From Caldithrix abyssi DSM 13497 (GTDB taxonomy: Bacteria; Electryoneota; AABM5-125-24; Hatepunaeales; Hatepunaeaceae), in the NCBI GenBank assembly GCA_945865405.1, contig CAMBDS010000002.1:2368-66367 (forward strand): a DNA stretch of 64,000 nucleotides, read 5' to 3'. Made by a program: the position numbers and the translations under genes. Of this stretch, positions 29,702-44,411 are shown piece by piece. The notes beneath the pieces were generated by a model. It was not told the DNA's origin and did no database searches. It was given only the letters and a program-made list of their open reading frames with translations. Numbering within the stretch: the stretch's first letter is position 1; each line of letters starts with the position of its first letter.

Positions 29702-32700
29702 TCATTTTTCCTTATCCCTATCCAACACCTCCCGCACCTTGGTAGCCAGTTCAACAGGTCTGAAAGGTTTCGGGAGATATGGTGAATCAGGGTCGATTAT
29801 TCCCTGATTGACGACAGCGTTTGTGGTATATCCCGACATGAAAATCACCTTCAAGCCGGGTATATGTCCGCGCATGATTGCCGCAAGTTCATTCCCCTTC
29901 ATCTTCGGCATCACTACATCCGTCAACAACAGGTCGAATTTCAACGATCCAGCGAGGTAAAGGTCGATAGCCTCTTGCCCGTTGGAAGCCGCTGTCACTT
30001 TATAACCGTAGGCTTCGAGGAATTTCACAGCAATCTCTCGCACTGCTCGCTCATCTTCCACTACAAGGATAGACTCGTCGCCTCTAAGTTTCGAGTTGTC
30101 CGTTGTGAGGTTAACCGCATCAATGTTACTCTCTTCCTGAGCCGCTGGCAGATATATCTTGAACGCTGTACCTTTCCCCACTTCTGAATAAACATTGATC
30201 GAGCCATTACTCTGCTTGACAATGCCATAAACAGTCGAAAGCCCCAGCCCCGTCCCCTTTCCAACTTCTTTTGTTGTGAAGAAAGGATCGAAGATTTTGC
30301 TGACGATTTCGCTCGACATTCCTATCCCGGTATCGCTAACCGCAAGCATGACGTGCTGGCCGGCATTCGCTTCAGGATAGAGTTTGATGTATTCCTTATC
30401 AAGAACAATATTGTCTGTTTCTATCGTGAGACTGCCCCCGTCCGGCATGGCATCACGGGCGTTGACGGCAAGATTAATAATCACCTGCTCTATCTGACCC
30501 GGATCGACTTTAACCTTCCAAAGATTAAGCGACCCCTTGCAAACCAAAGTGACATCTTCACCAATCAGACGCCGCAACATTTTTTCCATATTATTGATCG
30601 AATAATTCAAATCAACTATTTTCGGTGCCAAAGCCTGTTTTCGACTGAATGCCAGCAATTGACGCGTAAGGCTTGCCGCTCTATCTGCCGCATCGGCAAT
30701 TTCATTGATATCTTCCCGTACTGGATCATTGTCTTTTAACTTAATCATCGCCAATTCACAGTTACCAGAAATCACCGTAAGAAGATTATTGAAGTCGTGT
30801 GCTACTCCGCCCGCGAGCTGGCCTATCGACTCCATCTTTTGCGACTGGCGTAGTTGACCTTCCAGAATTTTTCGAGCTGAGAGATCACGCAATACAGAGA
30901 CTACCATCCAGTTGTCGCTGAATAGAAATGTATGCGCATTGACCTCAACCGGTACTTTTATCCCGTCCTTGCTTTGAACCAGCATCTCAAAATTATTTAC
31001 TCCTTCTTGCAAAAGTCGCTCACTTCTTTGAAGCATATGTGGACGATCTTCTTCCGCCGCAATGTCGAAGGGGGTCATACAAAGTAATTCATCATGGGTA
31101 AAACCCAGCAATTCAGTAGCGGCAAGATTTACTTCTGTGAACGTTGATAATTTGTCTGGTTCAATATGGCGTACGAGAATTGCGTCACGGGCATTGTCGA
31201 AAAGTGCGCGAAATTTCTCTGCCGATTCTTTGATCATCTTATCAGCACGAATTCGTTCGGTGATATCGCGAATGTTACATTGGATAACCGGCTTGCCTGC
31301 TACATCATAAACATTGCTGATAAACTCAACCAAATGTTCGTTGCCTGCCTTTGATTTTAATGGCAGATTTTCGTAACGAATATACTCTCTATCCTGCAAT
31401 TTCAAGAATTTGGCTTTACTCTCTTCGACGTCGATCCCCCAGCCAATATCCCAGATAGCCTTATCCTTCAGTTCTGCTAAAGTATATCCCAGCATATCCA
31501 GTATAAACGGATTCGCATCGACAATCTTCCCCGATTCCGAATCGAGTATAAGGATTCCATCCTTAGCCGCCTCGAAAAGACGTCGATAGCGCAATTCTGA
31601 CGCAATCGACTCTCGCTCAGCCTTGAGCTTCTCTGTAACATCTTGGACATCAATCAAAGAAGCGGGCATACCTTTGTAGATGAATGGAACTGCATTCATC
31701 TCAACGTTGAATGGCGTTCCGTCCAATTTTAAAAGAATTCCCTTTATTCCTCGCCTCGGAACTCCAGTATTAAGCATATCCTCAATATCTGCCAGAACAT
31801 AGGAACGGGCATATTCAGGAATTCGTTCAATAATGGGGTGTCCGATGACCTGGTTAGGGTCGGTGGCGCCATACATTGCAAGGCCTGATCGGTTGACAAA
31901 TTGCGTTACCCCACCACATTGAAACTCTATCATCGACGAAGTATTCTCGACCACCAGACGATGGAGTTCCTCAGAATGCACCAGTTCTGCTTCAGCAAGT
32001 TTGCGCTTAGTAATATCCTGGTTAACACCATAAGTTTTTACAGTTCTTCCTGTTGAATCTTTTTCTATGAATATCTGAACAGAAAAGTGCCCGATCTGGC
32101 CATCAGCATACAAAACACGGTGTTCGAGGATGCTACTATAATTTGGATCTTCTGTTGAAAGAGCTTTTCCAATCTCTTCTCCAACAAGTGGAAGTTCATC
32201 AGGATGAACGTACTTACCTGCATAGTCGGCTGACGACATTTTATAACCGCCAGCTTCAATTGCCGTGGTTCGAAATAGTGAGTAAAAGGCATCATTGAAA
32301 GTAAACTGATCTGCTGCTACATCATATTCCCAAGGTCCAAGCCGCGCAATGTCAATGGCGTTGGCAAGCTGTATTTTGCTGTTTCTCAGCTCCAGTTCGG
32401 CATTTTTTCGTTCGGTTATTACATCGAACACAGCTACAAAATGATCCCGTTTGGGGCTGTAAATCAACAACGAAAACCACTGCTTCAGAGCTTCTACGTG
32501 GAACTCAATCTTTTGCGTTTCGCCTCCGCGTGATACAGCTCCATAAATTCTAAACAATTCCTTGTCACTCTCAAGTATCCCCGGGATGACGTCCGAAACC
32601 TTTTTTCCAACAACATTTTTGAGTCCGGTCAGCGATTCGAAGGATTCATTGACATCAAGATAGATAAAATCAATAGGTTCATTGTTTTCGTATAACATTT

Positions 32701-33748
32701 GACAATAGGCGTACCCCTCCTGCATATTCTCAAAAAGTGATCGATACTTTATCTCGCTTGCGACTAGTTCCTTTTTCTGCTCGGAAGCTTTTGTCACTAA
32801 CCTTGCCAGAGACCCCAGCTCATCGTCCCTTTTGAGCATATCATTGAGAAGTGACGGGTCGTCTCTCCGTAAGCTTTCTGACAAGTTTTGTAACGGCTGA
32901 TAAATAAATTGATAAGCTCCAATTAATATTAACGCCATTAATCCCAACATAAATAGTGAATAATCAATAATATCCCTCTTGGTCGAGGCGGCAATTTTCG
33001 CAAACGAAGCAGCCTCTTTAGATGAAATCAGATAACCTTGTACTGTATCATTCCAACTCTTTAGCTCAAACCTGAAGTCGATTACTCCGATATCTGGCTC
33101 ATTATCATGGAGATGAGTGAGATTGCTTGCTTGATTCTCTGAATTGGGATACTCAACTGTAACATGACTCTCTATCAAGTCTGAAACCATCGTTACGTAA
33201 TCACTATCCCACAAAACCCCTGTAATAAAATATCCCTGAGGAGTGGTCTTCCTGTCTTGATCTGCTGAAGGTTGTAGCGGAGCGGTTCGAATTTCAAGTT
33301 TTCCCCAGGTTGAGTTGACAAAAAAATGATTGAACCAGTCGTCACTGATTACAGATTTAAGATCAAACGGCAACTCGATTGTCGTGAACTCTTCCTCTTC
33401 GTCCTTCATAACGTTATAAACAACATGAAAGTCCTTGTCTGTCAACCACAACGCGTCAACCTTGAATGTGGAGGTTGCAGGTTGAAGATTTTCAATAGCC
33501 CACACTGTATCAGGTGCCTTGACGAACTCAAGAATGTCATCCCAATAGCTGTAGTCATACGTGAGCAATCTCTGTGATTCATTAATAAGGGATAGCTGAT
33601 TATTGAAAATCCTAAGATCGCCAGCTTCTCTATCTTGATGAATCTCAATTAATTCCTGTTGCTCACTTTTCAACAGGAAATGCCCGCCCACTGCGAAAAG
33701 CAGCACGAACGAAGCGGCTAACAGAACAATTTTTGACTTAGTGTTCAT
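29702..33748 (-). CDS. hybrid sensor histidine kinase with periplasmic sensor, multiple PAS/PAC domains, HisKA, HATPase_c and C-terminal receiver
   Basis: 1348 aa. N-terminal transmembrane helix, then a second one about 250 aa later. Several PAS-like segments. H-box is GGVAHDFNNLLTVISG. GHKL motifs are present. The C-terminal REC domain is LVVEDERAVREI...LLLTDVVMPKMKG. Confidence 0.85.
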   Translation of the reverse strand: MNTKSKIVLLAASFVLLFAVGGHFLLKSEQQELIEIHQDREAGDLRIFNNQLSLINESQRLLTYDYSYWDDILEFVKAPDTVWAIENLQPATSTFKVDALWLTDKDFHVVYNVMKDEEEEFTTIELPFDLKSVISDDWFNHFFVNSTWGKLEIRTAPLQPSADQDRKTTPQGYFITGVLWDSDYVTMVSDLIESHVTVEYPNSENQASNLTHLHDNEPDIGVIDFRFELKSWNDTVQGYLISSKEAASFAKIAASTKRDIIDYSLFMLGLMALILIGAYQFIYQPLQNLSESLRRDDPSLLNDMLKRDDELGSLARLVTKASEQKKELVASEIKYRSLFENMQEGYAYCQMLYENNEPIDFIYLDVNESFESLTGLKNVVGKKVSDVIPGILESDKELFRIYGAVSRGGETQKIEFHVEALKQWFSLLIYSPKRDHFVAVFDVITERKNAELELRNSKIQLANAIDIARLGPWEYDVAADQFTFNDAFYSLFRTTAIEAGGYKMSSADYAGKYVHPDELPLVGEEIGKALSTEDPNYSSILEHRVLYADGQIGHFSVQIFIEKDSTGRTVKTYGVNQDITKRKLAEAELVHSEELHRLVVENTSSMIEFQCGGVTQFVNRSGLAMYGATDPNQVIGHPIIERIPEYARSYVLADIEDMLNTGVPRRGIKGILLKLDGTPFNVEMNAVPFIYKGMPASLIDVQDVTEKLKAERESIASELRYRRLFEAAKDGILILDSESGKIVDANPFILDMLGYTLAELKDKAIWDIGWGIDVEESKAKFLKLQDREYIRYENLPLKSKAGNEHLVEFISNVYDVAGKPVIQCNIRDITERIRADKMIKESAEKFRALFDNARDAILVRHIEPDKLSTFTEVNLAATELLGFTHDELLCMTPFDIAAEEDRPHMLQRSERLLQEGVNNFEMLVQSKDGIKVPVEVNAHTFLFSDNWMVVSVLRDLSARKILEGQLRQSQKMESIGQLAGGVAHDFNNLLTVISGNCELAMIKLKDNDPVREDINEIADAADRAASLTRQLLAFSRKQALAPKIVDLNYSINNMEKMLRRLIGEDVTLVCKGSLNLWKVKVDPGQIEQVIINLAVNARDAMPDGGSLTIETDNIVLDKEYIKLYPEANAGQHVMLAVSDTGIGMSSEIVSKIFDPFFTTKEVGKGTGLGLSTVYGIVKQSNGSINVYSEVGKGTAFKIYLPAAQEESNIDAVNLTTDNSKLRGDESILVVEDERAVREIAVKFLEAYGYKVTAASNGQEAIDLYLAGSLKFDLLLTDVVMPKMKGNELAAIMRGHIPGLKVIFMSGYTTNAVVNQGIIDPDSPYLPKPFRPVELATKVREVLDRDKEK

Positions 33749-34584: not shown

Positions 34585-35994
34585 TTATCCGTGAATCTGC
34601 ATCTTATTGACCGCCAGTGCCGCCTCCTTCAAGGCTTCGGAAAGCGTTGGGTGAGCGTGGATCGTGCGGCCAATATCCTCGGACGACGCGACAAACTCCA
34701 TCGCCATAGCGGCCTCAGCGATCAGGTCGGAAGCTCGCGGCCCCAATATGCTGACCCCCAACACCCTGTCGGTCTCAGCGTCAGCGACAACCTTCACCAA
34801 CCCCTCCGCACTGCCAAGGCTTAGTGCCCGCCCGTTCCCGCGGAAGTAGAACTTCCCGGTCTTGACCGTCTTCCCCGCCGCTTTCGCCTCATCCTCCGAC
34901 AACCCAACCACCGCAAGCTCAGGATTCGTATAGACAACATTCGGGACAACGTCGTAATTGACGTGCCCGGCGTGACCTGTGAGCTGCTCGGCTAACGCGA
35001 CGCCTTCTTCGGATGCCTTGTGCGCCAGCATCGGCCCGCGGATCAGATCGCCGATAGCGTAAACGCTGTGGATGTTGGTCTGGAAGTGGTCGTCAACCAC
35101 GACTTTGCCACGCTCGATGGCGACGCCAGCCTCAGCCAAGCCTGCGCCTTCGCTGAAGGCACGCCTGCCTATCGCGACAAGGATTTTGTCGCCAATGAGG
35201 CTCTGCTCAGCGCCGTCCTTGTCGGTGTAGGTGAGGGTGGCTTTTTTGCCTTTGACGGTCGCGCCGGTGACTTTGGCGTTAAGGATGAATTCGATGCCCT
35301 GATCAGTCAAAGATTTCTGGAGCATCGTCGTCAACTGCTTGTCGGCGAACGGGACGATGTTGGGGAGCATCTCCACGACGGTGACTTTGCTGCCGAGCCG
35401 CCGCCAGACGCTGCCAAGCTCAAGGCCGACCGCGCCAGCGCCGACGACGATCAGGTGGTCGGGGACTTTGTCGAAGGCGAGAGCTTCGGTCGAGGAAACG
35501 ACGAACTTGCCGTCGAACTTCATGAAGGGAAGCTCGATGGGGACAGAGCCCATGGCGAGGACGATGCTCTTAGTTTGGAGTTTGGAGTTTGGAGTTTGGA
35601 ATTGCGGGTCGGCGCTGTCAAGAATTTCGACTTCGCCGGTACCGATGAGCTTTCCAGTCCCTTTGATGACCGTGACCTTATTCTTCTTCATCAGCAAGGC
35701 GATGCCGTCAGTCAGGGTGTTGACGATGTTAGTTTTTTTGCCGAGAAGCTGGGGCAGGTCAAGCGAGACGCCGGAGGTTTTGATGCCGTAGCCAGGAAAT
35801 TTATGGAGGACGTCGTGGAACCATTCGGAGGTTTCGAGCATGGCTTTGGAAGGGATACAGCCAACGTTTAGGCACGTTCCGCCGAGGCGGGCGTCCTTTT
35901 CGACGAGGGCGACTTTCATGCCAAGCTGGGCGGCACGGATGGCGCAGACATAGCCTCCGGGGCCTGAGCCGATGACGACAAGATCGAAGTTCAT
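34585..35994 (-). CDS. lpdA: dihydrolipoyl dehydrogenase (E3)
   Basis: 469 aa. FAD-binding site is VVIGSGPGGYVCAIRAAQLG. Redox-active disulfide is GGTCLNVGCIPSK. Carries an in-frame (TTTGGAG)n insert encoding QTPNSKLQTK. Confidence 0.9.
   Translation of the reverse strand: MNFDLVVIGSGPGGYVCAIRAAQLGMKVALVEKDARLGGTCLNVGCIPSKAMLETSEWFHDVLHKFPGYGIKTSGVSLDLPQLLGKKTNIVNTLTDGIALLMKKNKVTVIKGTGKLIGTGEVEILDSADPQFQTPNSKLQTKSIVLAMGSVPIELPFMKFDGKFVVSSTEALAFDKVPDHLIVVGAGAVGLELGSVWRRLGSKVTVVEMLPNIVPFADKQLTTMLQKSLTDQGIEFILNAKVTGATVKGKKATLTYTDKDGAEQSLIGDKILVAIGRRAFSEGAGLAEAGVAIERGKVVVDDHFQTNIHSVYAIGDLIRGPMLAHKASEEGVALAEQLTGHAGHVNYDVVPNVVYTNPELAVVGLSEDEAKAAGKTVKTGKFYFRGNGRALSLGSAEGLVKVVADAETDRVLGVSILGPRASDLIAEAAMAMEFVASSEDIGRTIHAHPTLSEALKEAALAVNKMQIHG
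35574..35601. repeat. (TTTGGAG)4 heptanucleotide repeat inside lpd CDS
   Basis: tttggagtttggagtttggagtttggaa. Same tract as at 2365. Encodes FQTPNSKLQTK. Confidence 0.85.
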
Positions 35995-36031
35995 TAAGAA
36001 TTAATAATTAAGAATTAATAATTAAGAATAG
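35995..36031. repeat. 14-nt tandem repeat (TTAAGAATTAATAA x2.6) abutting lpd start codon
   Basis: ttaagaattaataa ttaagaattaataa ttaagaata, directly adjacent to the lpd ATG (complement of 35992-35994). Confidence 0.8.
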
Positions 36032-36044
36032 TTGGGAATCCCAA

Positions 36045-36650
36045 TTACTCTTTCCATTTGATGGAACAGCCTTTGGCGACAGTCTCGGCGGTGACGATCT
36101 GGTCGGGCTTGCCTGCGACGAGGGCCTTGATGGCGTCGGAAAGATAGTGCTCTTTGACCAAAGTTTGGTCCTTGGAGTCGTCGATAGCACCGCGGTAGCG
36201 CAAGGTTAAGTTGCCGTCGAAGAGGAAGACGTGGGGGGTGACTCGCGCACCGAAAGCTGTGCCTACCCATTGAGTCGGGTCGTAGAGGTAGGGGAAAGGG
36301 TACTTCTTCTCGAGGGCGCGGGCTTTCATATGTGCTGGGCCGTCGTCGGGGGCGAAAGACGTGTCGTTCGAGGAGATCAGGATGAGCTGGACGCCTTGCT
36401 TGCCGAACTCGTTGCCCAAGGCGATCATGCGGTCTTCGTAAGCCTTGGCAACGGGGCAGTGGTTGCAGGAGAAGATTACACAGACGGCTTTGGACTTGCC
36501 CTCGTAGCGGCTGATGTTGACGAACTTGTCGTCAACGGTGTTGACAAGCTTGAAGTCGGGGGACTTCGCGCCGATGGCAAGCTGCGGAGGGGGATCCTTG
36601 GCGAAAGCGGTCGCGGCAAGGAACAGGGGAAGGATGATGTATTTGGTCAT
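36045..36650 (-). CDS. secreted thioredoxin-fold thiol-disulfide oxidoreductase (TlpA/ResA/AhpC-TSA-like)
   Basis: 201 aa. Signal peptide. CxxC motif is FSCNHCPVAK. Confidence 0.7.
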   Translation of the reverse strand: MTKYIILPLFLAATAFAKDPPPQLAIGAKSPDFKLVNTVDDKFVNISRYEGKSKAVCVIFSCNHCPVAKAYEDRMIALGNEFGKQGVQLILISSNDTSFAPDDGPAHMKARALEKKYPFPYLYDPTQWVGTAFGARVTPHVFLFDGNLTLRYRGAIDDSKDQTLVKEHYLSDAIKALVAGKPDQIVTAETVAKGCSIKWKE

Positions 36651-37097
36651 TTAAGATCCTGTGCGTGAGTGGTGTTTATATAATGTAGTTTCAATGTCAT
36701 TCAAGAGAAATGGATTCAAGTTGTCTTGTAATATCTTGTATTTAATATAGATATAGTTTTGGGGCGTATAGTTCTCTATGCCAAATTCTCTTAATGTCAT
36801 GGGTGATCCAAACTCAATAGTTTTTCTTATAGTAATTGCTAATCCCAAATTACTTTGGCTGTAGTAATCGAGAAATCTGTCTATGTCAATACCACCAATA
36901 GAACCATACTTATTCCATAGACTCTCCGGAGAATCAACGTCCAGTTCATTTACAAAAAATAACCCGACAACTTTAGAAGTTGGTCTGGTTGAATATACGA
37001 GAATCGCATCCGGTTTTTTGCTAAAGGCAATTTTCCTAAACTCAACATGTTTTCGTCCAAGGAATATTGATGCTGTAAATTCGGGATGGATTGGCAT
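36651..37097 (-). CDS. ASCH-domain (PUA-like) protein
   Basis: ORF track gives 36651..37274, which overlaps the upstream gene. The internal start MPIHPEFTASIFLGRKHVEFRK matches the canonical ASCH N-terminus. Further ASCH-type segments are ...AILVYSTRPTSKVVGLFFV...LWNKYG.. and ..LAITIRKTIEFGSPMTLREFG. Lies in the low-GC island. Confidence 0.6.
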   Translation of the reverse strand: MPIHPEFTASIFLGRKHVEFRKIAFSKKPDAILVYSTRPTSKVVGLFFVNELDVDSPESLWNKYGSIGGIDIDRFLDYYSQSNLGLAITIRKTIEFGSPMTLREFGIENYTPQNYIYIKYKILQDNLNPFLLNDIETTLYKHHSRTGS

Positions 37098-37117
37098 CAA
37101 TGCGATCACCGAATTAA

Positions 37118-38596
37118 CTAGTGAATCCAATTTAGAACCTCCTTTGAAATTGACTGAATAGAGCGTGGTGCCATTTTCAGCAATCCATTTTGAATTAATT
37201 TCTCCAAAGAAATTGGCTGTTTCAGTATAATTGCCTGGCGAAAAAGAATGGCAATTACTTTTCTCTTTCGGCAAAGCTCCTCGATTTGATTGTAAGTATA
37301 TACCGTTCTTTTACTAACTAAACGAGCGATCCTATCTGGGTTTTCAGTTTGAATTGCTTTTTCGACAACCCCAACCGCCACGATACTTTTTCGTACCTTT
37401 GATGAATAAAAAAGAATAATCGATCCGGCATCAATTGCCTTAATACTTGAATTTGATAAATAAGCTTTCCGAAGAGAATTACCTGCTTCATTGACGCCAA
37501 CTAAAGTACTAAGTTGCTCCTCCACTTCAGGGAAGAGAACTTTCTGAAATCCAGATAATATTGGAACGATAAAAGTATTCCCTTTCTCACGATGAATTAT
37601 GTGAGGCCCAAATTTAATGTTGTATTCTAAAGAACCGAGGTTCTCGCTATCTAACACATTTGGAGAAAAAGATTTAATATAGAACACATCTCGAAACTGC
37701 TCATTGATAATATCTCTATAAAACCCGAACGTTTGTACCAAGGCAATGAGCGATACGTGTTTGTCAAAGATAGTCAAGTAACAATAGGAAAAGTCATTTG
37801 AATTCGCGTACTCAAATACGGATTTTAAAAGCAGTTCTCCATAGCCGAATCCAATAAAATTGCTTGCTACTTTAAATGAACAAATCTTGAGTACTTTCTT
37901 CTGAAATTCTAAATTCTTTGCAGGATAATCTTCGCTTGATTCGTGTTTGATTATACAAACCGCGGCGTATGGTGTCGATTCATCTCCATCAATAAGCCAA
38001 ATTGATCGATGTTCTCTTTTGACCTTTCTTGACCATTCATCAAACTTTGGATAATCATCACGAAAACTGTCGAAAAAAGGCGCAGAGAAATCGATTTCAT
38101 AAGCGTCTACTTTTCTTACAGATGGTGGAGGAGTAAATGATTCGTCATATAAGAATCGTTTTAGATAGTTGAGTGCCTCTTGAACCGAAAAAATGCGATC
38201 TGAAAAACCTAATTTATCCCCACGTTTCATTAAACGAACATCTTCTGTTATCAAACCATCAACCGCGTCTGCGTGCAGAGCCCCAATCATCTGAAAATCG
38301 ACCCAATCATTGCTTTTATTGCTAACTTCTCCTAACTGCTGAACCACGAATTCAAACGAATGTTTCGGTGTACTAACCAATTGGTATTTACCGAAACTGT
38401 TAAGTCGAATACTCTTTCTTTCCTGATCCCTATCTCGTAATATATCGAATTTTGAGCTCTCGTGAATACAAATATGATGTCCCGCCGTGCTAATCAGTCG
38501 ATGCAAGTCTTGTATTTGCTTGGACATTTGACTAAAATCATCCAATTTCGTTGGCTCTAACGGGATGAAAATATTGGTATCAATCAGAAATTTCAA
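37118..38596 (-). CDS. PIN nuclease - GNAT acetyltransferase - ASCH/PUA-like three-domain fusion protein
   Basis: 492 aa. TTG start 4 nt after the sucB stop. The PIN domain is MKFLIDTNIFIPLE...GLITEDVRLM, with acidic residues at the canonical positions. GNAT motifs A and B are KVLKICSFKVASNFIGFGYGELLLKSVFEYA and YCYLTIFDKHVSLIALVQTFGF. The C-terminal ASCH-like domain is GSIILFYSSKVRKSIVAVGVVE...VIAILFRQAIILKQPISLEKLIQNGLLKMAPRSIQSIS. About 38% GC against about 55% in the flanks. Confidence 0.6.
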   Translation of the reverse strand: MKFLIDTNIFIPLEPTKLDDFSQMSKQIQDLHRLISTAGHHICIHESSKFDILRDRDQERKSIRLNSFGKYQLVSTPKHSFEFVVQQLGEVSNKSNDWVDFQMIGALHADAVDGLITEDVRLMKRGDKLGFSDRIFSVQEALNYLKRFLYDESFTPPPSVRKVDAYEIDFSAPFFDSFRDDYPKFDEWSRKVKREHRSIWLIDGDESTPYAAVCIIKHESSEDYPAKNLEFQKKVLKICSFKVASNFIGFGYGELLLKSVFEYANSNDFSYCYLTIFDKHVSLIALVQTFGFYRDIINEQFRDVFYIKSFSPNVLDSENLGSLEYNIKFGPHIIHREKGNTFIVPILSGFQKVLFPEVEEQLSTLVGVNEAGNSLRKAYLSNSSIKAIDAGSIILFYSSKVRKSIVAVGVVEKAIQTENPDRIARLVSKRTVYTYNQIEELCRKRKVIAILFRQAIILKQPISLEKLIQNGLLKMAPRSIQSISKEVLNWIH

Positions 38597-38600
38597 TCGT

Positions 38601-39893
38601 TCACACTCCCATCATCAACCGTTCCGGCTGTTCGATGCACTCGACGATTTTTTTCAGGAAGGCGACAGACTCGCGGCCGTCAATCAGGCGGTGGTCATAT
38701 GAAAGCGCGAGGTACATCATCGGACGGACGACGATCTGGTCAGAGTCACCAACCACCACAGGACGCTTCTTGACCCCATGCAAGCCCAAAATCCCCGGCT
38801 GAGGCGGGTTCAGGATCGGCGTCGAAAGCATCGAACCGAAGACCCCACCATTGGAAATCGTGAAGACGCCGCCTTGCAAGTCGTCCAAGGTGATCGTCCG
38901 GTTGCGAGCCTTCTCTGCGTAGCGGGCAATTGCAGCCTCAAGCTCGGCAAAACCGAGCTGGTCAGCATCACGAATGACCGGCACAACCAAACCGCGCTCC
39001 GTCGAGACAGCTACGCCGATGTCGTAAAAGTGGTTCTCGACGATTGAGTCGCCGTCGATCCGGGCGTTGACTGCGGGGACGGCTTTCAAAGCCTCGACGG
39101 TCGCCTTCACGAAGAACGACATGAACCCAAGTTTGATACCGTATTTTGCCTGAAATGGTTCCTGCAAGTGAGCGCGCGCAGTCATCACCGCCGACATATC
39201 GACCTCGTTGAAGGTGGACAGTGTGGCAGAGTTATGCTGAGACTCTACCATCCGCTCGGCGATGCGGTGGCGGAGGGAAGACATGGGGCGACGAGTTGTT
39301 CTCTCGGCAATGGAAGGTTTGACACCCCCCCCTGCCCCCCCCGCAAGCGGTGGGGGTAGAGAGACAGGTTTGGAAACCTGTCCTACCGAAACTGCTTTCA
39401 GGGCATCTTCTTTGGTGATGCGGCCGCCTTTGCCTGTGCCGACGATCAGCGCGGGGTTAAGTTGCTCCTCGGCGACGATACGACGAACGGAAGGAGCCAG
39501 GTCGTTTAGATTAGCTTTGAGAGATTCGATGCCTGCGGTTGGGGAGAGAGCGGGAATTTCTGAGGAGGAGGAGGAGACACCCCCCCCTGCCCCCCCCGCA
39601 AGCGGTGGGGATGCGACAGGTTTGGAAACCTGTCCTACCGGGGCGGGAGCCGCTACGGCGTCGGTGTCGATGGTGGCGACGGAACTGCCGATCAAGACGG
39701 TGTCGCCGGGTTTGGCGGAGAGGCTGATTCGTCCGGCCTTCTCTGCGGTGACGGTCATAGAGACTTTGTCGGTCTCAAGCTCGAAGAGAGCGTCGTCCGC
39801 CTTGACGAAGGCTCCGTCGGAAACTTTCCATTCAGCGAGGATACCTTCCGAGATCGACTCGCCTACGGCCGGGACTTTGACGGTAATGCGCAT
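38601..39893 (-). CDS. sucB: dihydrolipoamide succinyltransferase, E2 of 2-oxoglutarate dehydrogenase
   Basis: 430 aa. Lipoyl domain is LFELETDKVSMTV. Two Ala/Pro/Gly linkers. Subunit-binding domain is IVGTGKGGRITKEDA. Catalytic DHRLIDG. Both linkers are encoded by copies of a palindromic repeat element. Confidence 0.85.
   Translation of the reverse strand: MRITVKVPAVGESISEGILAEWKVSDGAFVKADDALFELETDKVSMTVTAEKAGRISLSAKPGDTVLIGSSVATIDTDAVAAPAPVGQVSKPVASPPLAGGAGGGVSSSSSEIPALSPTAGIESLKANLNDLAPSVRRIVAEEQLNPALIVGTGKGGRITKEDALKAVSVGQVSKPVSLPPPLAGGAGGGVKPSIAERTTRRPMSSLRHRIAERMVESQHNSATLSTFNEVDMSAVMTARAHLQEPFQAKYGIKLGFMSFFVKATVEALKAVPAVNARIDGDSIVENHFYDIGVAVSTERGLVVPVIRDADQLGFAELEAAIARYAEKARNRTITLDDLQGGVFTISNGGVFGSMLSTPILNPPQPGILGLHGVKKRPVVVGDSDQIVVRPMMYLALSYDHRLIDGRESVAFLKKIVECIEQPERLMMGV
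39302..39375. repeat. copy of the palindromic element inside sucB linker 2 (in-frame)
   Basis: cccccccctgccccccccgcaagcggtgggggtagagagacaggtttggaaacctgtcctacc is the reverse-complement of the 29440-29520 units. Encodes VGQVSKPVSLPPPLAGGAGGGV. Confidence 0.8.
39582..39650. repeat. second copy of the palindromic element inside sucB linker 1 (in-frame)
   Basis: cccccccctgccccccccgcaagcggtggggatgcgacaggtttggaaacctgtcctacc. Encodes GQVSKPVASPPLAGGAGGGV. Confidence 0.8.
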
Positions 39894-39984: not shown

Positions 39985-41061
39985 TTATCTTGCGCCCCTA
40001 TTCTTCCGCCACAGCTTTATAATGCCGAGGCCGCATCCGCTCGCCAGCCTTGTTCCGTCGGGGCTGAACGCGACAGAAAGGACCCAATCATTATGCCCCG
40101 TAAGCGTCCCAAGTAGCGCCCCGTCCGACGGCCGCCACAGCTTGATGCGGTTGTCGCCGCCCCCACTTGCCAGCGTCATCCCGTCGGGACTAAAGGCGAC
40201 GGACGAAACTCCGCCCTTATGCCCCTCGAGCGTCCGCAGACAGGAACCGTCCGAAGCTCGCCATAGATTGATGGCATTATCCCGGCTCCCGCTTGCCAGC
40301 GTCGTCCCGTCAGGGCTGAAAGCGACAGAATGGACCCAATTCGAATGTCCTTCGAGAGTCCGCAGGCGCTCCCCGTCCGAAGCCCGCCACAGCTTGACGG
40401 TTTTATCCGTGCTTCCACTCGCCAGAGTCGCCCCATCGGGGCTGAAGGCGACAGTTAGGATCCCTTTCTTATGCCCTTCGAGCGTCCGCAGACGGGCACC
40501 GTCCGAAGCCTTCCACAGCTTAATGGTTTTATCCAGACTCCCGCTCGCCAGCGTCGTTCCATCGGGGCTGAAGGAGACGGAATTGACCCAATTCGCATGC
40601 CCTTCGAGCGTCCGCAACAGCGACCCGTCCGAAGCCCGCCACAGCTTGATGCGGTTGTCGCATCCCCCACTCGCCAGAGTCGTCCCGTCGGGGCTGAAGG
40701 CGACGGATAAGACTCCATTATTGTGACTCTCAATTGTCTTCAGTAGTTTCCCGTCCGAAGTACGCCACAATTTGATGGTTTCATCCATGCTCCCACTCGC
40801 CAGAGTTGTCCCGTCGGGGTTGAAGGCGACGCACATTGCCCCTCCACCAGTATGCCCCTCGAGTGTCCTTTCGAGCGTGACGTCAATATCTTGCACGGCG
40901 GTGGCTTCGTACGCAAAACAAAGACATATGAGAACGCTAAGGCTGTGAATTCTAATCCAATCAACAAGGCACGAAAGAGGATAAAGCCTCCAAGTTTTTC
41001 CGTCCCAATGCCTAACAGCCTCTTCGTTTCTTTGTGTCTTCGTGTTAAAATCCTTGCACAC
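39985..41061 (-). CDS. WD40-repeat beta-propeller protein (7 near-identical repeats)
   Basis: 358 aa. Seven repeats of the form LEGH...V.SVAFSPDGTTLASGS.D.TIKLWRASDG..LRTL. Hydrophobic N-terminal segment. Confidence 0.8.
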   Translation of the reverse strand: MCKDFNTKTQRNEEAVRHWDGKTWRLYPLSCLVDWIRIHSLSVLICLCFAYEATAVQDIDVTLERTLEGHTGGGAMCVAFNPDGTTLASGSMDETIKLWRTSDGKLLKTIESHNNGVLSVAFSPDGTTLASGGCDNRIKLWRASDGSLLRTLEGHANWVNSVSFSPDGTTLASGSLDKTIKLWKASDGARLRTLEGHKKGILTVAFSPDGATLASGSTDKTVKLWRASDGERLRTLEGHSNWVHSVAFSPDGTTLASGSRDNAINLWRASDGSCLRTLEGHKGGVSSVAFSPDGMTLASGGGDNRIKLWRPSDGALLGTLTGHNDWVLSVAFSPDGTRLASGCGLGIIKLWRKNRGAR

Positions 41062-41090: not shown

Positions 41091-43910
41091 TTACGATTCG
41101 ATCATTTCCGGGAGGATCGTCACGTCGTGTCCGACTGCGTTGCCGGTGATTGCAGACTTGACAATCTCGGCTTGCTCGCGCTGATGACGAATCAGAGATC
41201 CTGTCGCGGCGGCGGCGGCGTAGCCTCGCCCAACGTAATGTAGAGGTGTACCCGTAAATAGATATTGAAGCCAGGGTCGGATAAAAGTCCAGGCACCACG
41301 ATTCTTCGGTTCTTCCTGCGCCCAGACGATCTCAGAGACTCCCTTGTAACGACTGGCAATTTGTTGCATCAGGTCGTTCTTTAAAGGGTAGAGTTGTTCA
41401 ATGCGCACGAGGGCAATGTCATCGACATTTTGAGCGGTGCGGTACTCGAGAAGCTCATAGTAGAGCTTGCCGTTGCAAAGGACGAGCCGACGGGGATTCT
41501 TGGGCGGCGTCGGGTCGTCTAGGATTTCGTGGAAGCCGTCGTCGGTGAACTCGCTCAACTTCGAGACGGCGAGCTTATGCCTGAGCATCGACTTAGGTGC
41601 CATAAGAATTAGAGGACGGCGGAACTTGCGGCGAACCTGACGACGAAGGGCGTGGAAATATTGTGCCGGGGTTGTCAGGTTGCAGACCTGCATGTTGTCT
41701 TGAGCACACGCAGAGAGGTAACGCTCCAAGTAGGCGTTGGAATGCTCCGCGCCCTGACCTTCGAAGCCGTGGGGGAGTAGCATGATCAGGCCTGAGGTGC
41801 GCTGCCACTTTGATTGAGATGCGACTATGAACTGGTCGATTATCATCTGGGCACCGTTGGAGAAATCGCCAAACTGGGCTTCCCAGAGGATCATCATGCG
41901 TGGTTCAGCAAGCGAGTAGCCGTAATCGAAACCGAGGACTGCAGCCTCAGAGAGGGGGCTGTTGTAAACGCAGAAGTGCGATTGTTCGCTGGAAATGTTG
42001 TTCAGCGGGATATAGCTCGATTCGGTCACCATGTCTTTCCAAACAGAGTGACGCTGTGAGAAGGTACCGCGCTCGCTGTCCTGCCCGGAGAGCCGAATGG
42101 GGGTCTTCTCTTGCAACAATGTTCCAAAAGCAAGTGCTTCGGCGAACGACCAGTCGAGACCGTTATCCTGCTCGAACGCAGTCAGTTTGTCGGCCATCTG
42201 GCGGGCGATCTTGGGGTTTAGATTGAAGTCCCCGGGGACTCGCGTTAAGGCTCGGGCGACAATTTCGAGGGCTTCGGGAGTGACGGAAGTCTTGAAAGGC
42301 GCTTCGCTCCACTTTTGATCGAGGCCTTCCCAACGGGGGTCTACCGCATGCGAGCGGAACTCAACCTCTTTTTTGTGGTTGGTGAAGTGTGCCTGAAGGT
42401 CGGACTGGAATTCAGTGGCGATCTTCTCGGTCTCGGTCGGGTCAATCTCGCCGGCTTCGAGCAGAGCTTTGCCGTAGAGTTTATAGATCGAGGGACGATT
42501 CTTGATTTTGTCGTACATCAAGGGTTGGGTGAAAGCTGGTTCGTCGGCTTCGTTGTGGCCGAACCGACGGTAACATACCATATCGATGACGACGTCGCGC
42601 TGGAATTCCTGACGGAATTTCAAGGCAAGTTCCGTGACATAGACGACAGCTTCGGGGTCATCGCTATTGACATGGAAGATAGGGGCTTCGATAGCTTTGG
42701 CTGAGTCGGTGCAGTAGGCGGAGCTGCGGCCGTCCTGAGGAACAGTGGTGAAGCCGATCTGGTTATTGATGACGAAGTGGATTGTCCCGCCGACATGATA
42801 GCCTTTTAGCTGTGACATGTTGAGGACTTCCGCAACGAGTCCTTGCCCGGCAAATGCGGCATCGCCATGGATCAGGAAGGGAAGTACACCGCGACGGTCA
42901 ACATTTTCACCGGGAGCGTAAGTACCACCGCGAACGTGGTGGAGTTGGCGTTGTTTGGCGCGAGCACGTCCGAGCACGACGGGATCGACAGCCTCAAGAT
43001 GGGAGGGGTTGGCAGTTAGAGTCAGGTGGACAGACTTGCCGGAAGCGTTGACGTGGTTGCTTGAGAAGCCGAGGTGGTACTTGACGTCGCCGTCGCCGCC
43101 GAAGGAGTCGGGCAGAAGCATCCCCTCGAACTCGCTGAAAATCATATCATATTCTTTGTCGAGGATGTTCGCCAGCATGTTGAGCCTGCCGCGGTGTGCC
43201 ATGCCAAGGACGATCTCGTTGACGCCGAGGTCGGGGGCAAGCATGACTAAGGCGTGAACAGCAGGGATCAACGTTTCGCCACCTTGAAGCGAGAAGCGTT
43301 TATGACCCGGGTAGCGGGTGTGGATAAACGACTCAAACATCTCAGCTTCAGAAAGGAGGCGAAGAATCTCGGCTTTTTTTGCTTTGTCAAAGTTGGGCCG
43401 GTTGCGACGAGGCTCGATTTCGGCTTGTATCCAGCGGCGTATCGATTTGTCCTGAATGTGGGTATATTGGACGCCGATTGTGCCGCAATAAGTCTCCTGC
43501 AAGATGGTCAGAATTTGTTGCAGAGAGGCTCGAGGAGGACCACCGAGATGCCCGGTATCGAATACAGAATCGAGGTCTTTGTCGGTGAAGTCGTAGTTGT
43601 GATAATCGAGGTCGGCAATCGAGTAAGGGTTTACGGGATTACCCAACGGATCGAGGTGGGCGGCGAAGTGACCCTCCGTCCGGTAAGCGAAGATCAAGCT
43701 GGCGACCTGCGACTGTAGATGAGCACGAGACGAAGCGACACAAGTGCGGGGGCACATTGCCATCTCGAAGCCGCGGAAAAACATCTGCCAGTCGGGGGAC
43801 AGGGACGCGGGGTCTTCCTCCCATTGGGCGTGGAGGTTGAGGACGTAGTCCTGATTCCAGCCGGTAACGGCGGGAGATTTGTGTCGGGTTGGTGAGTCTG
43901 TTATTGACAA
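41091..43910 (-). CDS. sucA: 2-oxoglutarate dehydrogenase E1 component
   Basis: 939 aa. Contains HGDAAFAGQGLVAEVLNMSQLKGYHVGGTIHFVINNQIGFTT and ThDP-binding regions typical of SucA. Confidence 0.9.
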   Translation of the reverse strand: MSITDSPTRHKSPAVTGWNQDYVLNLHAQWEEDPASLSPDWQMFFRGFEMAMCPRTCVASSRAHLQSQVASLIFAYRTEGHFAAHLDPLGNPVNPYSIADLDYHNYDFTDKDLDSVFDTGHLGGPPRASLQQILTILQETYCGTIGVQYTHIQDKSIRRWIQAEIEPRRNRPNFDKAKKAEILRLLSEAEMFESFIHTRYPGHKRFSLQGGETLIPAVHALVMLAPDLGVNEIVLGMAHRGRLNMLANILDKEYDMIFSEFEGMLLPDSFGGDGDVKYHLGFSSNHVNASGKSVHLTLTANPSHLEAVDPVVLGRARAKQRQLHHVRGGTYAPGENVDRRGVLPFLIHGDAAFAGQGLVAEVLNMSQLKGYHVGGTIHFVINNQIGFTTVPQDGRSSAYCTDSAKAIEAPIFHVNSDDPEAVVYVTELALKFRQEFQRDVVIDMVCYRRFGHNEADEPAFTQPLMYDKIKNRPSIYKLYGKALLEAGEIDPTETEKIATEFQSDLQAHFTNHKKEVEFRSHAVDPRWEGLDQKWSEAPFKTSVTPEALEIVARALTRVPGDFNLNPKIARQMADKLTAFEQDNGLDWSFAEALAFGTLLQEKTPIRLSGQDSERGTFSQRHSVWKDMVTESSYIPLNNISSEQSHFCVYNSPLSEAAVLGFDYGYSLAEPRMMILWEAQFGDFSNGAQMIIDQFIVASQSKWQRTSGLIMLLPHGFEGQGAEHSNAYLERYLSACAQDNMQVCNLTTPAQYFHALRRQVRRKFRRPLILMAPKSMLRHKLAVSKLSEFTDDGFHEILDDPTPPKNPRRLVLCNGKLYYELLEYRTAQNVDDIALVRIEQLYPLKNDLMQQIASRYKGVSEIVWAQEEPKNRGAWTFIRPWLQYLFTGTPLHYVGRGYAAAAATGSLIRHQREQAEIVKSAITGNAVGHDVTILPEMIES

Positions 43911-43943: not shown

Positions 43944-44198
43944 TTAATAAGCTTCTGACCGGTGAGCTACTTTGTTGACGGTTACAATTTTGGCTTTATC
44001 GTCGATTGAGTAGAGTATCCGCAAATCGCCGATACGAACACGGTAAACGTTATCAAAATCAGCGAGCTTGAGACAACCTATTGGTCGAGGATTAGTTTCA
44101 AACGCAATGAGTTTTGCCTCAACACGCAAAAAGTGATCGTCAGAAAGCTGTCTCATGGATTTCTGAGCTCCTTTAGTCACAACGACAAGATACTTCAC
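43944..44198 (-). CDS. RelE/ParE-family type II toxin
   Basis: 84 aa. YRVRIGDLRILYSIDDKAKIVTVNKVAHRSEAY is the RelE/ParE signature. Overlaps the upstream antitoxin stop. Confidence 0.75.
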   Translation of the reverse strand: MKYLVVVTKGAQKSMRQLSDDHFLRVEAKLIAFETNPRPIGCLKLADFDNVYRVRIGDLRILYSIDDKAKIVTVNKVAHRSEAY

Positions 44199-44411
44199 TT
44201 AAAGGCCGCGTTTTTGGCGTTCTTCCCGCAGGACTTGCTCAAGCGGCACGGTCTCTTCGTTTCGACTTTCATCTATTGACGCAACATCTTCGATGTCTTC
44301 TATCAGTTCCTGTAATCTGCGCCAGCTTTTCATATCGATCAGGACACCTGTTCGACGACCTCGTTGATTTGTGACAAAGTGAGGGTTAAGTTTAAGAGCA
44401 TTGGTTGTCAT
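44199..44411 (-). CDS. type II antitoxin (Phd/YefM- or RelB-like)
   Basis: 70 aa, acidic C-terminus. Immediately upstream of the RelE/ParE toxin and coupled to it. Confidence 0.55.
   Translation of the reverse strand: MTTNALKLNPHFVTNQRGRRTGVLIDMKSWRRLQELIEDIEDVASIDESRNEETVPLEQVLREERQKRGL

Follow-up and report, generated by a model that had tools for sequence, protein, structure and literature searches.

The window analyzed here is a 64,000-nucleotide (nt) stretch of contig CAMBDS010000002.1 (positions 2,368 to 66,367 of the forward strand), deposited under the name Caldithrix abyssi DSM 13497. Between sucB and a redoxin gene of its sucA–sucB–redoxin–lpd operon, it carries a cassette of two open reading frames (ORFs), here called A and B, which encode a PIN–GNAT–PUA-like fusion protein and a stand-alone ASCH protein, respectively (Table 1). 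The guanine-plus-cytosine (GC) content of the cassette is 36.5%, against 56.4% for sucA, sucB, the redoxin gene and lpd and 50.4% for the whole window, of which the cassette is the lowest-GC 2-kb stretch; the original prediction, made from the letters of the DNA, had already pointed to a low-GC island within the sucA–sucB–lpd cluster. Judged from sequence, the pair is a divergent member of a known, experimentally uncharacterised family, and its architecture is not new.

Table 1. Features of the cassette and of the surrounding operon, with positions counted from the first letter of the window (aa, amino acids).
Feature	Position	Strand	Remarks
Gene A, 492 aa, TTG start	37118-38596	(-)	ORF list; PADLOC PDC-M11A match
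PIN nuclease domain of A, about residues 1-150	38147-38596	(-)	
GNAT acetyltransferase domain of A, about residues 160-310	37667-38119	(-)	
C-terminal PUA-like (EVE-type) domain of A, about residues 335-492	37121-37594	(-)	Paralogue of B without the Gly-Lys-Glu-Arg motif
Gene B, 148 aa, ATG start 37097, TAA 36651-36653	36651-37097	(-)	ZmASCH (GKER) type; PADLOC PDC-M11B match
ASCH octapeptide of B, G14-x-K16-x-x-E19-x-R21	37035-37058	(-)	
Cassette (foreign segment)	about 36669-38596	(-)	~1.93 kb, between sucB and redoxin/lpd
Left junction: sucB stop TGA (38601-38603) + ACGA	38597-38603	(-)	Sequence reading
Right junction: host-derived 12-nt TCACGCACAGGA	36657-36668	(-)	Redoxin ribosome-binding region, also last codons of B
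sucA	41091-43910	(-)	Host operon gene
WD40 gene	39985-41061	(-)	Between sucA and sucB
sucB, E2 of 2-oxoglutarate dehydrogenase	38601-39893	(-)	ORF; Pfam Biotin_lipoyl/E3_binding/2-oxoacid_dh on identical contig; ~57-62% GC
Redoxin, secreted AhpC/TSA family	36045-36650	(-)	Host gene; Pfam AhpC-TSA, E = 1.3e-17
lpd, dihydrolipoyl dehydrogenase	34585-35994	(-)	Host gene; ORF; Pfam Pyr_redox_2/Pyr_redox_dim

Both proteins were recognised by profiles of the PADLOC collection. Protein A aligned with PDLC04421 (PDC-M11A) at E = 9.9e-156, residues 1-492 against positions 1-481 of the 486 in the profile, and protein B with PDLC04425 (PDC-M11B) at E = 6e-36; in the PHROGs database, A matched phrog_10674 over its full length (E = 1e-81) and B matched phrog_3136 (E = 1e-32). 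PDC stands for 'phage defence candidates', which were picked for copies embedded in BREX, DISARM or type I restriction–modification (R-M) loci, and the supplement of that study annotates the cassette FAM_00697>>FAM_00247 with the words 'Assign as candidate PDC-M11' (Payne et al. 2024, bioRxiv 10.1101/2024.01.29.577857). The two proteins of the window match the PDC-M11 profiles over their full length, and their genes are adjacent, co-oriented and ordered as in PDC-M11, whereas the nominated copies lie in BREX, DISARM or type I R-M loci and the window copy lies in an operon of the tricarboxylic acid (TCA) cycle.

The architecture has also been described in the literature. Bell, Wolf and Koonin (2020) reported EVE domains fused to the C-terminus of GNAT domains, often with an N-terminal PIN domain and with an adjacent ASCH gene, tied PIN–GNAT–EVE proteins to type I R-M and other defence genes and PIN-less GNAT–EVE proteins to prophages, and noted that none of these modules had been experimentally characterised (PMC7641849). 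The first description, together with the proposal that the GNAT acetylates DNA bases, is credited to Iyer et al. (2013), as cited in PMC7641849. The order of PIN, GNAT and PUA-like domains, the PIN acidic active-site residues, the central GNAT, the separate ASCH gene that comes next and the patchy, mobile distribution are all found for the window pair and its relatives; by contrast, the window locus has no AAA_17 ATPase gene and no adjacent R-M system, and in place of the type I R-M or defence neighbourhood that is frequent, though not obligatory, in such operons, its flanks are sucB and redoxin/lpd. Because of these descriptions and the PDC-M11 listing, the supposition made at the outset, that the architecture is an unrecognised one, is not supported.

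A homologous, PIN-less pair of Escherichia phage PhiR47_2 (GenBank PV340567.1) was labelled GevT toxin and GevA antitoxin by its depositors; both of these proteins belong to PDC-M11 (E = 2e-133 and 7e-52). Protein B shares 36% identity with GevA (E = 5e-22); between protein A and GevT, identity over the GNAT region is 30% (E = 6e-20). In both cases a GNAT–EVE protein is followed by an ASCH protein; GevT differs in having 357 aa and no PIN domain, and the GevT/GevA pair is phage-borne, at the rexAB position. The PDC-M11 assignment and this label agree with the general idea, put forward in the original prediction, of a toxin/immunity or defence module.

Pfam detected Acetyltransf_1 in protein A over residues 167-292 (E = 2e-5, above the gathering score) and, below threshold, EVE over residues 381-491 (E = 0.0055), and the same search gave no PIN match for the window protein; across 43 members of the family, Acetyltransf_1 was found in 40, PIN_3 in 10, EVE in 10 and ASCH in none. 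Homologues of A form 641 clusters at 90% identity, nearly all of them of about 489 aa, and 542 clusters at 50% identity were collected at E <=1e-30 from 1.84 billion representatives; no relative of the window protein exceeded 45% identity. An AlphaFold model built on a 120-sequence alignment reached a mean predicted local distance difference test (pLDDT) score of 91.3, whereas a single-sequence model (pLDDT 32) was discarded. The best structural matches of its PIN domain are VapC structures, its C-terminal domain is structurally closest to ZmASCH, the ASCH protein of Zymomonas mobilis, and not to any solved EVE protein, and a Foldseek search against the viral structures of BFVD returned generic GNATs only.

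The catalytic-type residues of both enzyme domains are conserved. Among the 120 aligned sequences, D6, D100 and D119 of the PIN domain are invariant, with E14, D51 and D55 kept in at least 90%, and G249, E254, L255 and L257 of the GNAT acetyl-CoA loop are invariant as well, so that the two motifs whose conservation had been suggested as a check are in place. The NCBI gene call for A gives a 469-aa protein from Met24, dropping the first PIN strand with the invariant Asp6 (38528-38596); the family alignment backs the TTG start at 38596. In the C-terminal domain, K377, Y379, F396, Y397, Y433 and P477 are invariant. A profile–profile comparison found this domain to be homologous to protein B (probability 77%, E = 2e-5, 122 columns), and it keeps the aromatic and P-Q-S cleft residues and lacks the G, K, E and R of the ASCH octapeptide. 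The call of three domains in A was thus supported, and the naming of the last one as ASCH proper was not, given that the octapeptide is absent and that the literature uses the name EVE; the choice between the two names is a matter of convention.

Protein B gave no Pfam match and was assigned through its homologues. It aligned with the ZmASCH chains PDB 5GUQ/5GUS at E = 3e-9, and ZmASCH itself (ZMO0922) scores as PDC-M11B (E = 3e-29). The octapeptide of B is of the GKER type (G-x-K-x-x-E-x-R), with a Lys–Glu dyad, as in ZmASCH, TthASCH, EOLA1 and TRIP4. In 80 aligned sequences of the B family, K16, E19 and R21 are present in 100% and G14 in 99%, Y35 and Y78 in 100%, and P112-Q113 in 97-100%; the conserved positions map onto Y47, Y90, Q127 and S128 of ZmASCH, which line its nucleic-acid cleft, and mutation of Y47, K53 or S128 lowers binding or cleavage (PMC5615036). 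A longer ORF for B (207 aa, from a TTG at 37274, overlapping A) was rejected because the alignment of homologues begins at MPIHPEF. B had been announced as a canonical ASCH protein of 149 aa; the ASCH assignment and the sequence stand, and the length is 148 aa. The comparison drawn at that time with YqfB did not hold, the motif of B being GKER and not GKTR; a YqfB-type N4-acetylcytidine (ac4C) amidohydrolase, with a GK[T/S]R octapeptide and ~103-110 aa, was rejected, as B has Glu at that place and 148 aa.

ZmASCH is the member of the B family for which biochemical data exist. It was reported as a Mg-dependent endoribonuclease specific for single-stranded RNA (ssRNA), and it binds both ssRNA and single-stranded DNA (ssDNA) without degrading the latter (PMC5615036). 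In a recent preprint, all 19 ASCH proteins examined, including ZmASCH, removed ac4C34 of E. coli tRNA in vitro, deacetylation of tRNA ac4C by those GKER-type proteins that were tested required the Lys–Glu dyad of the G-K-E-R octapeptide, and ZmASCH was inactive on the free nucleoside (10.64898/2026.02.27.708502). ZmASCH belongs to the same family as B and has in common with it the GKER motif and the cleft residues Y47, Y90 and Q127; it differs in having S128 where B has Asn, its K53 is not conserved, and its gene has no A-like neighbour. In the ZMO0922 region (L093, 4825-6447), the gene for the solved protein is preceded by one for an unrelated 375-aa protein, from which it follows that B-type ASCH proteins have at least one other partner. 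ZmASCH was rejected as the partner of an A-like protein in Zymomonas, since this upstream neighbour does not resemble A and was matched by neither PADLOC nor Pfam.

The reach of the family was examined in 80 loci from a genome scan and five found by exact protein look-up. The loci from the scan belong to Chloroflexota, Acidobacteriota, Planctomycetota, Verrucomicrobiota, Myxococcota, Actinomycetota, Armatimonadota, Desulfobacterota, Spirochaetota, Nitrospirota and other phyla. A homologue of B lies directly downstream on the same strand in 83 of the 84 full-length A homologues, and the sole exception runs off its contig. In relatives, the two genes are typically separated by 2 nt or overlap by 4 nt (projected), which indicates translational coupling of A and B in most relatives; in the window, B starts 20 nt past the stop codon of A. 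The GC content of the cassette is more than 3 points below that of its flanks at 61 of 76 loci, with a median of -6 points, and at the window locus it is -20 points. The 138 ORFs that were inspected beside 35 loci include four type I specificity subunits (HsdS) and also HsdR, methylase and SWI2/SNF2 genes.

Further homologues are carried by mobile elements. Plasmid homologues occur in 30 records, mostly from rhizobia, with partners annotated as 'ASCH domain-containing' or 'helix-turn-helix', and the archaeal prophage psiM100 has one homologue within its 'inserted fragment IFa'. In lambdoid phages, the PIN-less pair sits directly 3′ of cI, in the rexAB position (L150 2959-4387, Escherichia phage PhiR47_2), and 275 of 5426 complete E. 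coli genomes have the phage version at >=99% identity. Pairing of A with B is obligate in the family, and the family is mobile. The E. coli annotation of the phage-type pair reads only 'hypothetical protein | ASCH domain-containing protein'.

At the window locus, the cassette is fitted tightly between its neighbors. The TTG start of A follows the sucB stop TGA after the 4 nt ACGA, the very distance first predicted, and a GGGAG Shine–Dalgarno-like motif lies within the last sucB codons, 9 nt 5′ of this TTG. At the other end, the TAA stop of B abuts the redoxin ATG with no spacer, and the spacers at the two cassette ends measure 0-4 nt. The last five codons of B and its stop (…S-R-T-G-S-stop) fall in host-like sequence that includes the 12-mer TCACGCACAGGA, which is identical in the window and in a related locus, L092 (4391-4402), and lies in each 6 nt upstream of the redoxin start. 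Because L092 has the same 12-mer, we take the end of B to be the host-derived redoxin leader with its ribosome-binding site. The foreign DNA thus has its right edge near 36669 and not at 36651, the first position of the limits 36651-38600 proposed earlier. From its junctions, the cassette appears to have inserted into the very short stretch that separates the sucB stop codon from the ribosome-binding site of the redoxin gene. Since no room is visible for an upstream promoter or a terminator of its own, its transcription together with sucA–sucB–redoxin–lpd is probable. A promoter scan gave one strong, near-consensus σ70-like match (TCGACA-17-TATAAT, 11/12; 37950-37978, minus strand), which lies within gene A; it may be due to chance in 36% GC DNA and, if real, would direct transcription of the 3′ portion of A, followed by B and redoxin/lpd.

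No integrase, recombinase or transposase gene, target-site duplication, terminal inverted repeat, flanking direct repeat or attC-like structure was found at the island ends, in agreement with the statement of the original prediction that neither an integrase nor direct repeats were visible. An integron cassette, a transposon and an integrative island were rejected as descriptions of the 1.93-kb insert, which has no recombinase gene and no flanking repeats.

Comparison with relatives bears on how the cassette came to lie there. The redoxin–lpd linkage was common to only two database relatives, L091 and L092, and L092 (JGI Ga0172380_10019169), the nearest relative that has the operon, was informative. 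Its SucA, SucB and Lpd share 79%, 72% and 72% identity with their window counterparts, and at its sucB–redoxin junction a gene for a DUF4258 protein (E = 7e-11) begins 1 nt after the sucB stop and is followed by an 89-aa MqsA-like zinc-ribbon ORF (weak, E = 0.0012); these two genes, which span 3772-4361, look like a toxin–antitoxin pair. Two related genomes accordingly have unrelated two-gene cassettes in the same few-base gap. Since L092 has a different toxin–antitoxin-like pair at the junction, the A–B cassette is accessory there, and it is not a core member of the operon, present in all relatives with host-like composition. The low GC content and this different pair indicate that the cassette was acquired horizontally, as had been suspected from its composition. 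In L092, a HEAT-repeat gene lies between redoxin and lpd. No further sucB–redoxin linkage was found in a metagenome scan with the redoxin, in which nothing exceeded 54% identity, and the closest named redoxin matches came from Calditrichota-like metagenome-assembled genomes.

Considering these results together, we favor, with a probability of roughly 55%, the reading that the cassette is a horizontally acquired, mobile toxin–antidote or candidate anti-phage module of the (PIN)-GNAT-EVE + ASCH family (PDC-M11). The Gev labels, the toxin–antitoxin-like pair of L092 and a RelB/ParE pair just upstream of sucA speak for the toxin–antitoxin side of this reading, and the type I R-M genes among the neighboring ORFs for a link to defence. 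Protein A would be the effector, whose EVE-type PUA domain would dock on nucleic acid, most likely an RNA (tRNA, for example), through a base flipped into its aromatic pocket; docking would place the GNAT domain to move an acetyl group from acetyl-CoA onto the docked substrate and would also place the PIN domain to cut RNA. Protein B would be the antidote: as an ASCH protein of the GKER type, it would bind substrates of the same kind and would either strip off the acetyl mark by means of its Lys16/Glu19 dyad or block A. Loss or overwhelming of B, as upon phage infection or loss of the element, would then let A stop translation. The toxicity of A, its substrate, the chemistry of acetylation and deacetylation, the trigger and any defence phenotype are inferred.

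A more specific version holds that the cassette is a writer–eraser toxin–antitoxin system acting on RNA, in which the GNAT would N-acetylate a nucleobase (for example cytidine at N4) or the aminoacyl group of a tRNA picked out by the EVE-type reader domain, the fused PIN would cut the RNA so marked and B would reverse the mark through its Lys–Glu dyad. The absence of the dyad from the PUA-like domain of A is in keeping with a role as reader for this domain and as eraser for B, and the system appears to combine a reader-type PUA domain, fused to GNAT and PIN, and a separate PUA-like protein in which the hydrolase-type residues are retained. That B retains the Lys–Glu dyad (its role in deacetylation being described in preprint 10.64898/2026.02.27.708502) keeps viable the earlier suggestion of an acetylating toxin with a deacetylating antidote. 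We consider this version, with its specific chemistry, clearly less likely than not.

The proposed logic resembles that of DarT/DarG, an enzymatic writer–eraser toxin–antitoxin system that also defends against phage, in which DarT ADP-ribosylates DNA and the macrodomain of its partner is the eraser. The analogy that we propose is one of logic only, a modifying toxin with an enzyme that removes its mark and with the toxin gene first; the folds and the chemistry are unrelated, the mark being ADP-ribose there and, as proposed, acetyl here. GNAT and PIN are established toxin folds that act on tRNA or RNA, as in TacT, AtaT, ItaT and KacT and in VapBC. Those toxins, however, have a single domain and a small DNA-binding antitoxin encoded upstream, whereas A is a fusion whose partner is a downstream ASCH protein, and no family-level sequence match of A to the GNAT tRNA-acetylating toxins or the VapBC toxins was found. 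A TacT/AtaT-type system, with a single-domain GNAT and an upstream ribbon-helix-helix (RHH)/DUF1778 antitoxin, was rejected for the same locus, given that A has three domains and 492 aa and that the gene upstream of it is sucB; nor is the pair a VapBC-type module.

Several points weigh against a toxin–antidote module acting on RNA. The substrate of the GNAT was proposed by Iyer et al. (2013), as quoted in PMC7641849, to be DNA bases and not RNA. The report of ac4C deacetylation is a preprint without peer review, and ZmASCH expressed in E. coli did not lower ac4C in the same work (10.64898/2026.02.27.708502); there is also no obvious metal site for the RNase activity of ZmASCH (PMC5615036), and the ZmASCH gene is not adjacent to any A-like gene. 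PDC systems are explicitly untested candidates and were left out by the DefensePredictor preprint, and our literature searches on PDC-M11, GNAT–EVE and GevT/GevA found no experimental study and did not trace the basis of the Gev names. The survey of neighborhoods, suggested with the original prediction, bore out the co-occurrence of A with B and not a residence in defence islands: most of the sampled loci lie among housekeeping genes, and the window locus is not in a defence island. Finally, window A deviates at 12 of 110 highly conserved (>=90%) positions, including P78K, D172A, R398S and Q478R, and B has Asn in place of S114, which is kept in 80% of the 80 B-family sequences, so that the activity of the window copy is not assured.

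Two of the other explanations accept that the proteins act together and assign them different tasks. In a modification-sensing restriction system, the EVE-type domain of A together with B would read hypermodified phage DNA bases, the GNAT would acetylate an amino group of the modified base, the PIN would destroy phage transcripts and B would serve as co-sensor. PUA-like domains are known modified-base readers, and Bell et al. argue from helix-turn-helix (HTH)–ASCH fusions and an ASCH–HsdS fusion that the ASCH proteins of such operons bind modified DNA (PMC7641849); the DNA-base proposal of Iyer et al. (via PMC7641849), the HTH annotation of plasmid partners and the type I R-M genes among the neighbors point the same way. 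We nevertheless regard such a system as unlikely, for PIN domains are RNases and not DNases, ZmASCH, the one B-family protein characterised so far, has ssRNA and tRNA as substrates and leaves ssDNA undegraded, and the cassette holds no methylase or other self-marking gene, while the strict 1:1 coupling of A and B and the toxin/antitoxin label of the phage record suit an antidote better. Rather improbable, too, is a type II-like neutralisation, in which B would be a non-enzymatic antitoxin and/or an autoregulator that binds A or the operon DNA and would use its GKER cleft for nucleic-acid binding only. The translational coupling of A and B, the binding of ssDNA and ssRNA by ZmASCH (PMC5615036), the HTH–ASCH fusions of alpha-proteobacterial versions and the regulatory role suggested by Bell et al. 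(PMC7641849) would all accord with it. The catalytic-type Lys and Glu, however, are invariant in 80 B sequences from many phyla, which exceeds what binding alone needs, and window B has no HTH and no promoter region left in the window to regulate.

The remaining explanations would remove the conflict role, the activity or the locus itself. If A and B were a housekeeping pair, a writer and an eraser of tRNA or rRNA acetylation recruited to the operon, their probable co-transcription with central-metabolism genes would make sense, as would the link through acetyl-CoA between GNAT chemistry and the TCA cycle and the reported activity of ASCH proteins as ac4C erasers; yet the nearest relatives that share the operon do not have the pair, its GC content lies 20 points under that of the flanks, its distribution over more than 10 phyla, plasmids and phages is patchy, and L092 has an unrelated toxin–antitoxin-like pair at the same junction, all of which makes this very improbable. 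The cassette could also be real and its window copy a decaying passenger, inactive and drifting. The 12 deviations of A from the consensus would be explained in this way, as would the C-terminal tail of B that extends into host sequence and the lack of any relative of A at >=50% identity among 15 billion proteins. Both ORFs are intact and of full length, though, many of the substitutions run towards AT-rich codons (P to K/E/S), as composition alone would predict, and all residues invariant in the family are kept in the window copy, the invariant alignment columns of A having been determined with the window sequence included; we see little chance that decay is the explanation. An assembly chimera, with the low-GC segment joined to the operon by metagenome mis-assembly, has to be considered for any metagenome-assembled contig such as this one. 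Two assemblies from different records match the window at 100% identity across the B/redoxin junction, one of them with a 3.5-kb contig that covers A–B–redoxin–lpd, which makes a chimera unlikely, and the junctions are tight, in-frame and spanned by shared ribosome-binding motifs; we consider mis-assembly extremely improbable.

The toxin–antidote reading matters beyond this locus, the family being widespread in more than 10 phyla, in plasmids and in archaeal and enteric prophages. If the writer–eraser version is true, RNA acetylation would be tied to bacterial immunity and the ASCH/PUA-like 'erasers' would gain a biological context; the cassette would then correspond to a DarT/DarG that uses acetyl and would give ASCH deacetylases their first natural role in conflict systems. 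The window copy, which is divergent and comes from an uncultured host, adds little on mechanism, for which the E. coli prophage pair is the better experimental model. Its local interest lies in the operon-junction hotspot and in the asymmetry of reader and eraser between the two PUA-like domains, and it exemplifies how small toxin–antidote cassettes may colonise the inter-cistronic junctions of a core operon, borrowing the transcription of the operon and even its ribosome-binding sites.

Other junctions of the operon have insertions of their own. The WD40 gene encodes a seven-repeat β-propeller (Pfam WD40, E = 1.8e-96); since L092 has only ~105 nt and no WD40 gene between sucA and sucB, this gene is a further accessory insertion. 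Directly upstream of sucA, on the minus strand, lie genes for a RelB-like antitoxin (44199-44411, E = 1.5e-6) and a ParE toxin (43944-44156, E = 4.3e-7), at which the GC content dips to ~46-49%. It seems that each junction of the sucA–sucB–redoxin–lpd operon takes up accessory genes. In the short AT-rich spacer between redoxin and lpd, the 14-mer ATTAATAATTAAGA occurs in exact tandem duplication (36000-36027). Further downstream, a gene for a 1348-aa CHASE4/PAS hybrid histidine kinase (29702-33748, minus strand), at 39-47% GC, forms the second-lowest GC stretch of the window and may be foreign too.

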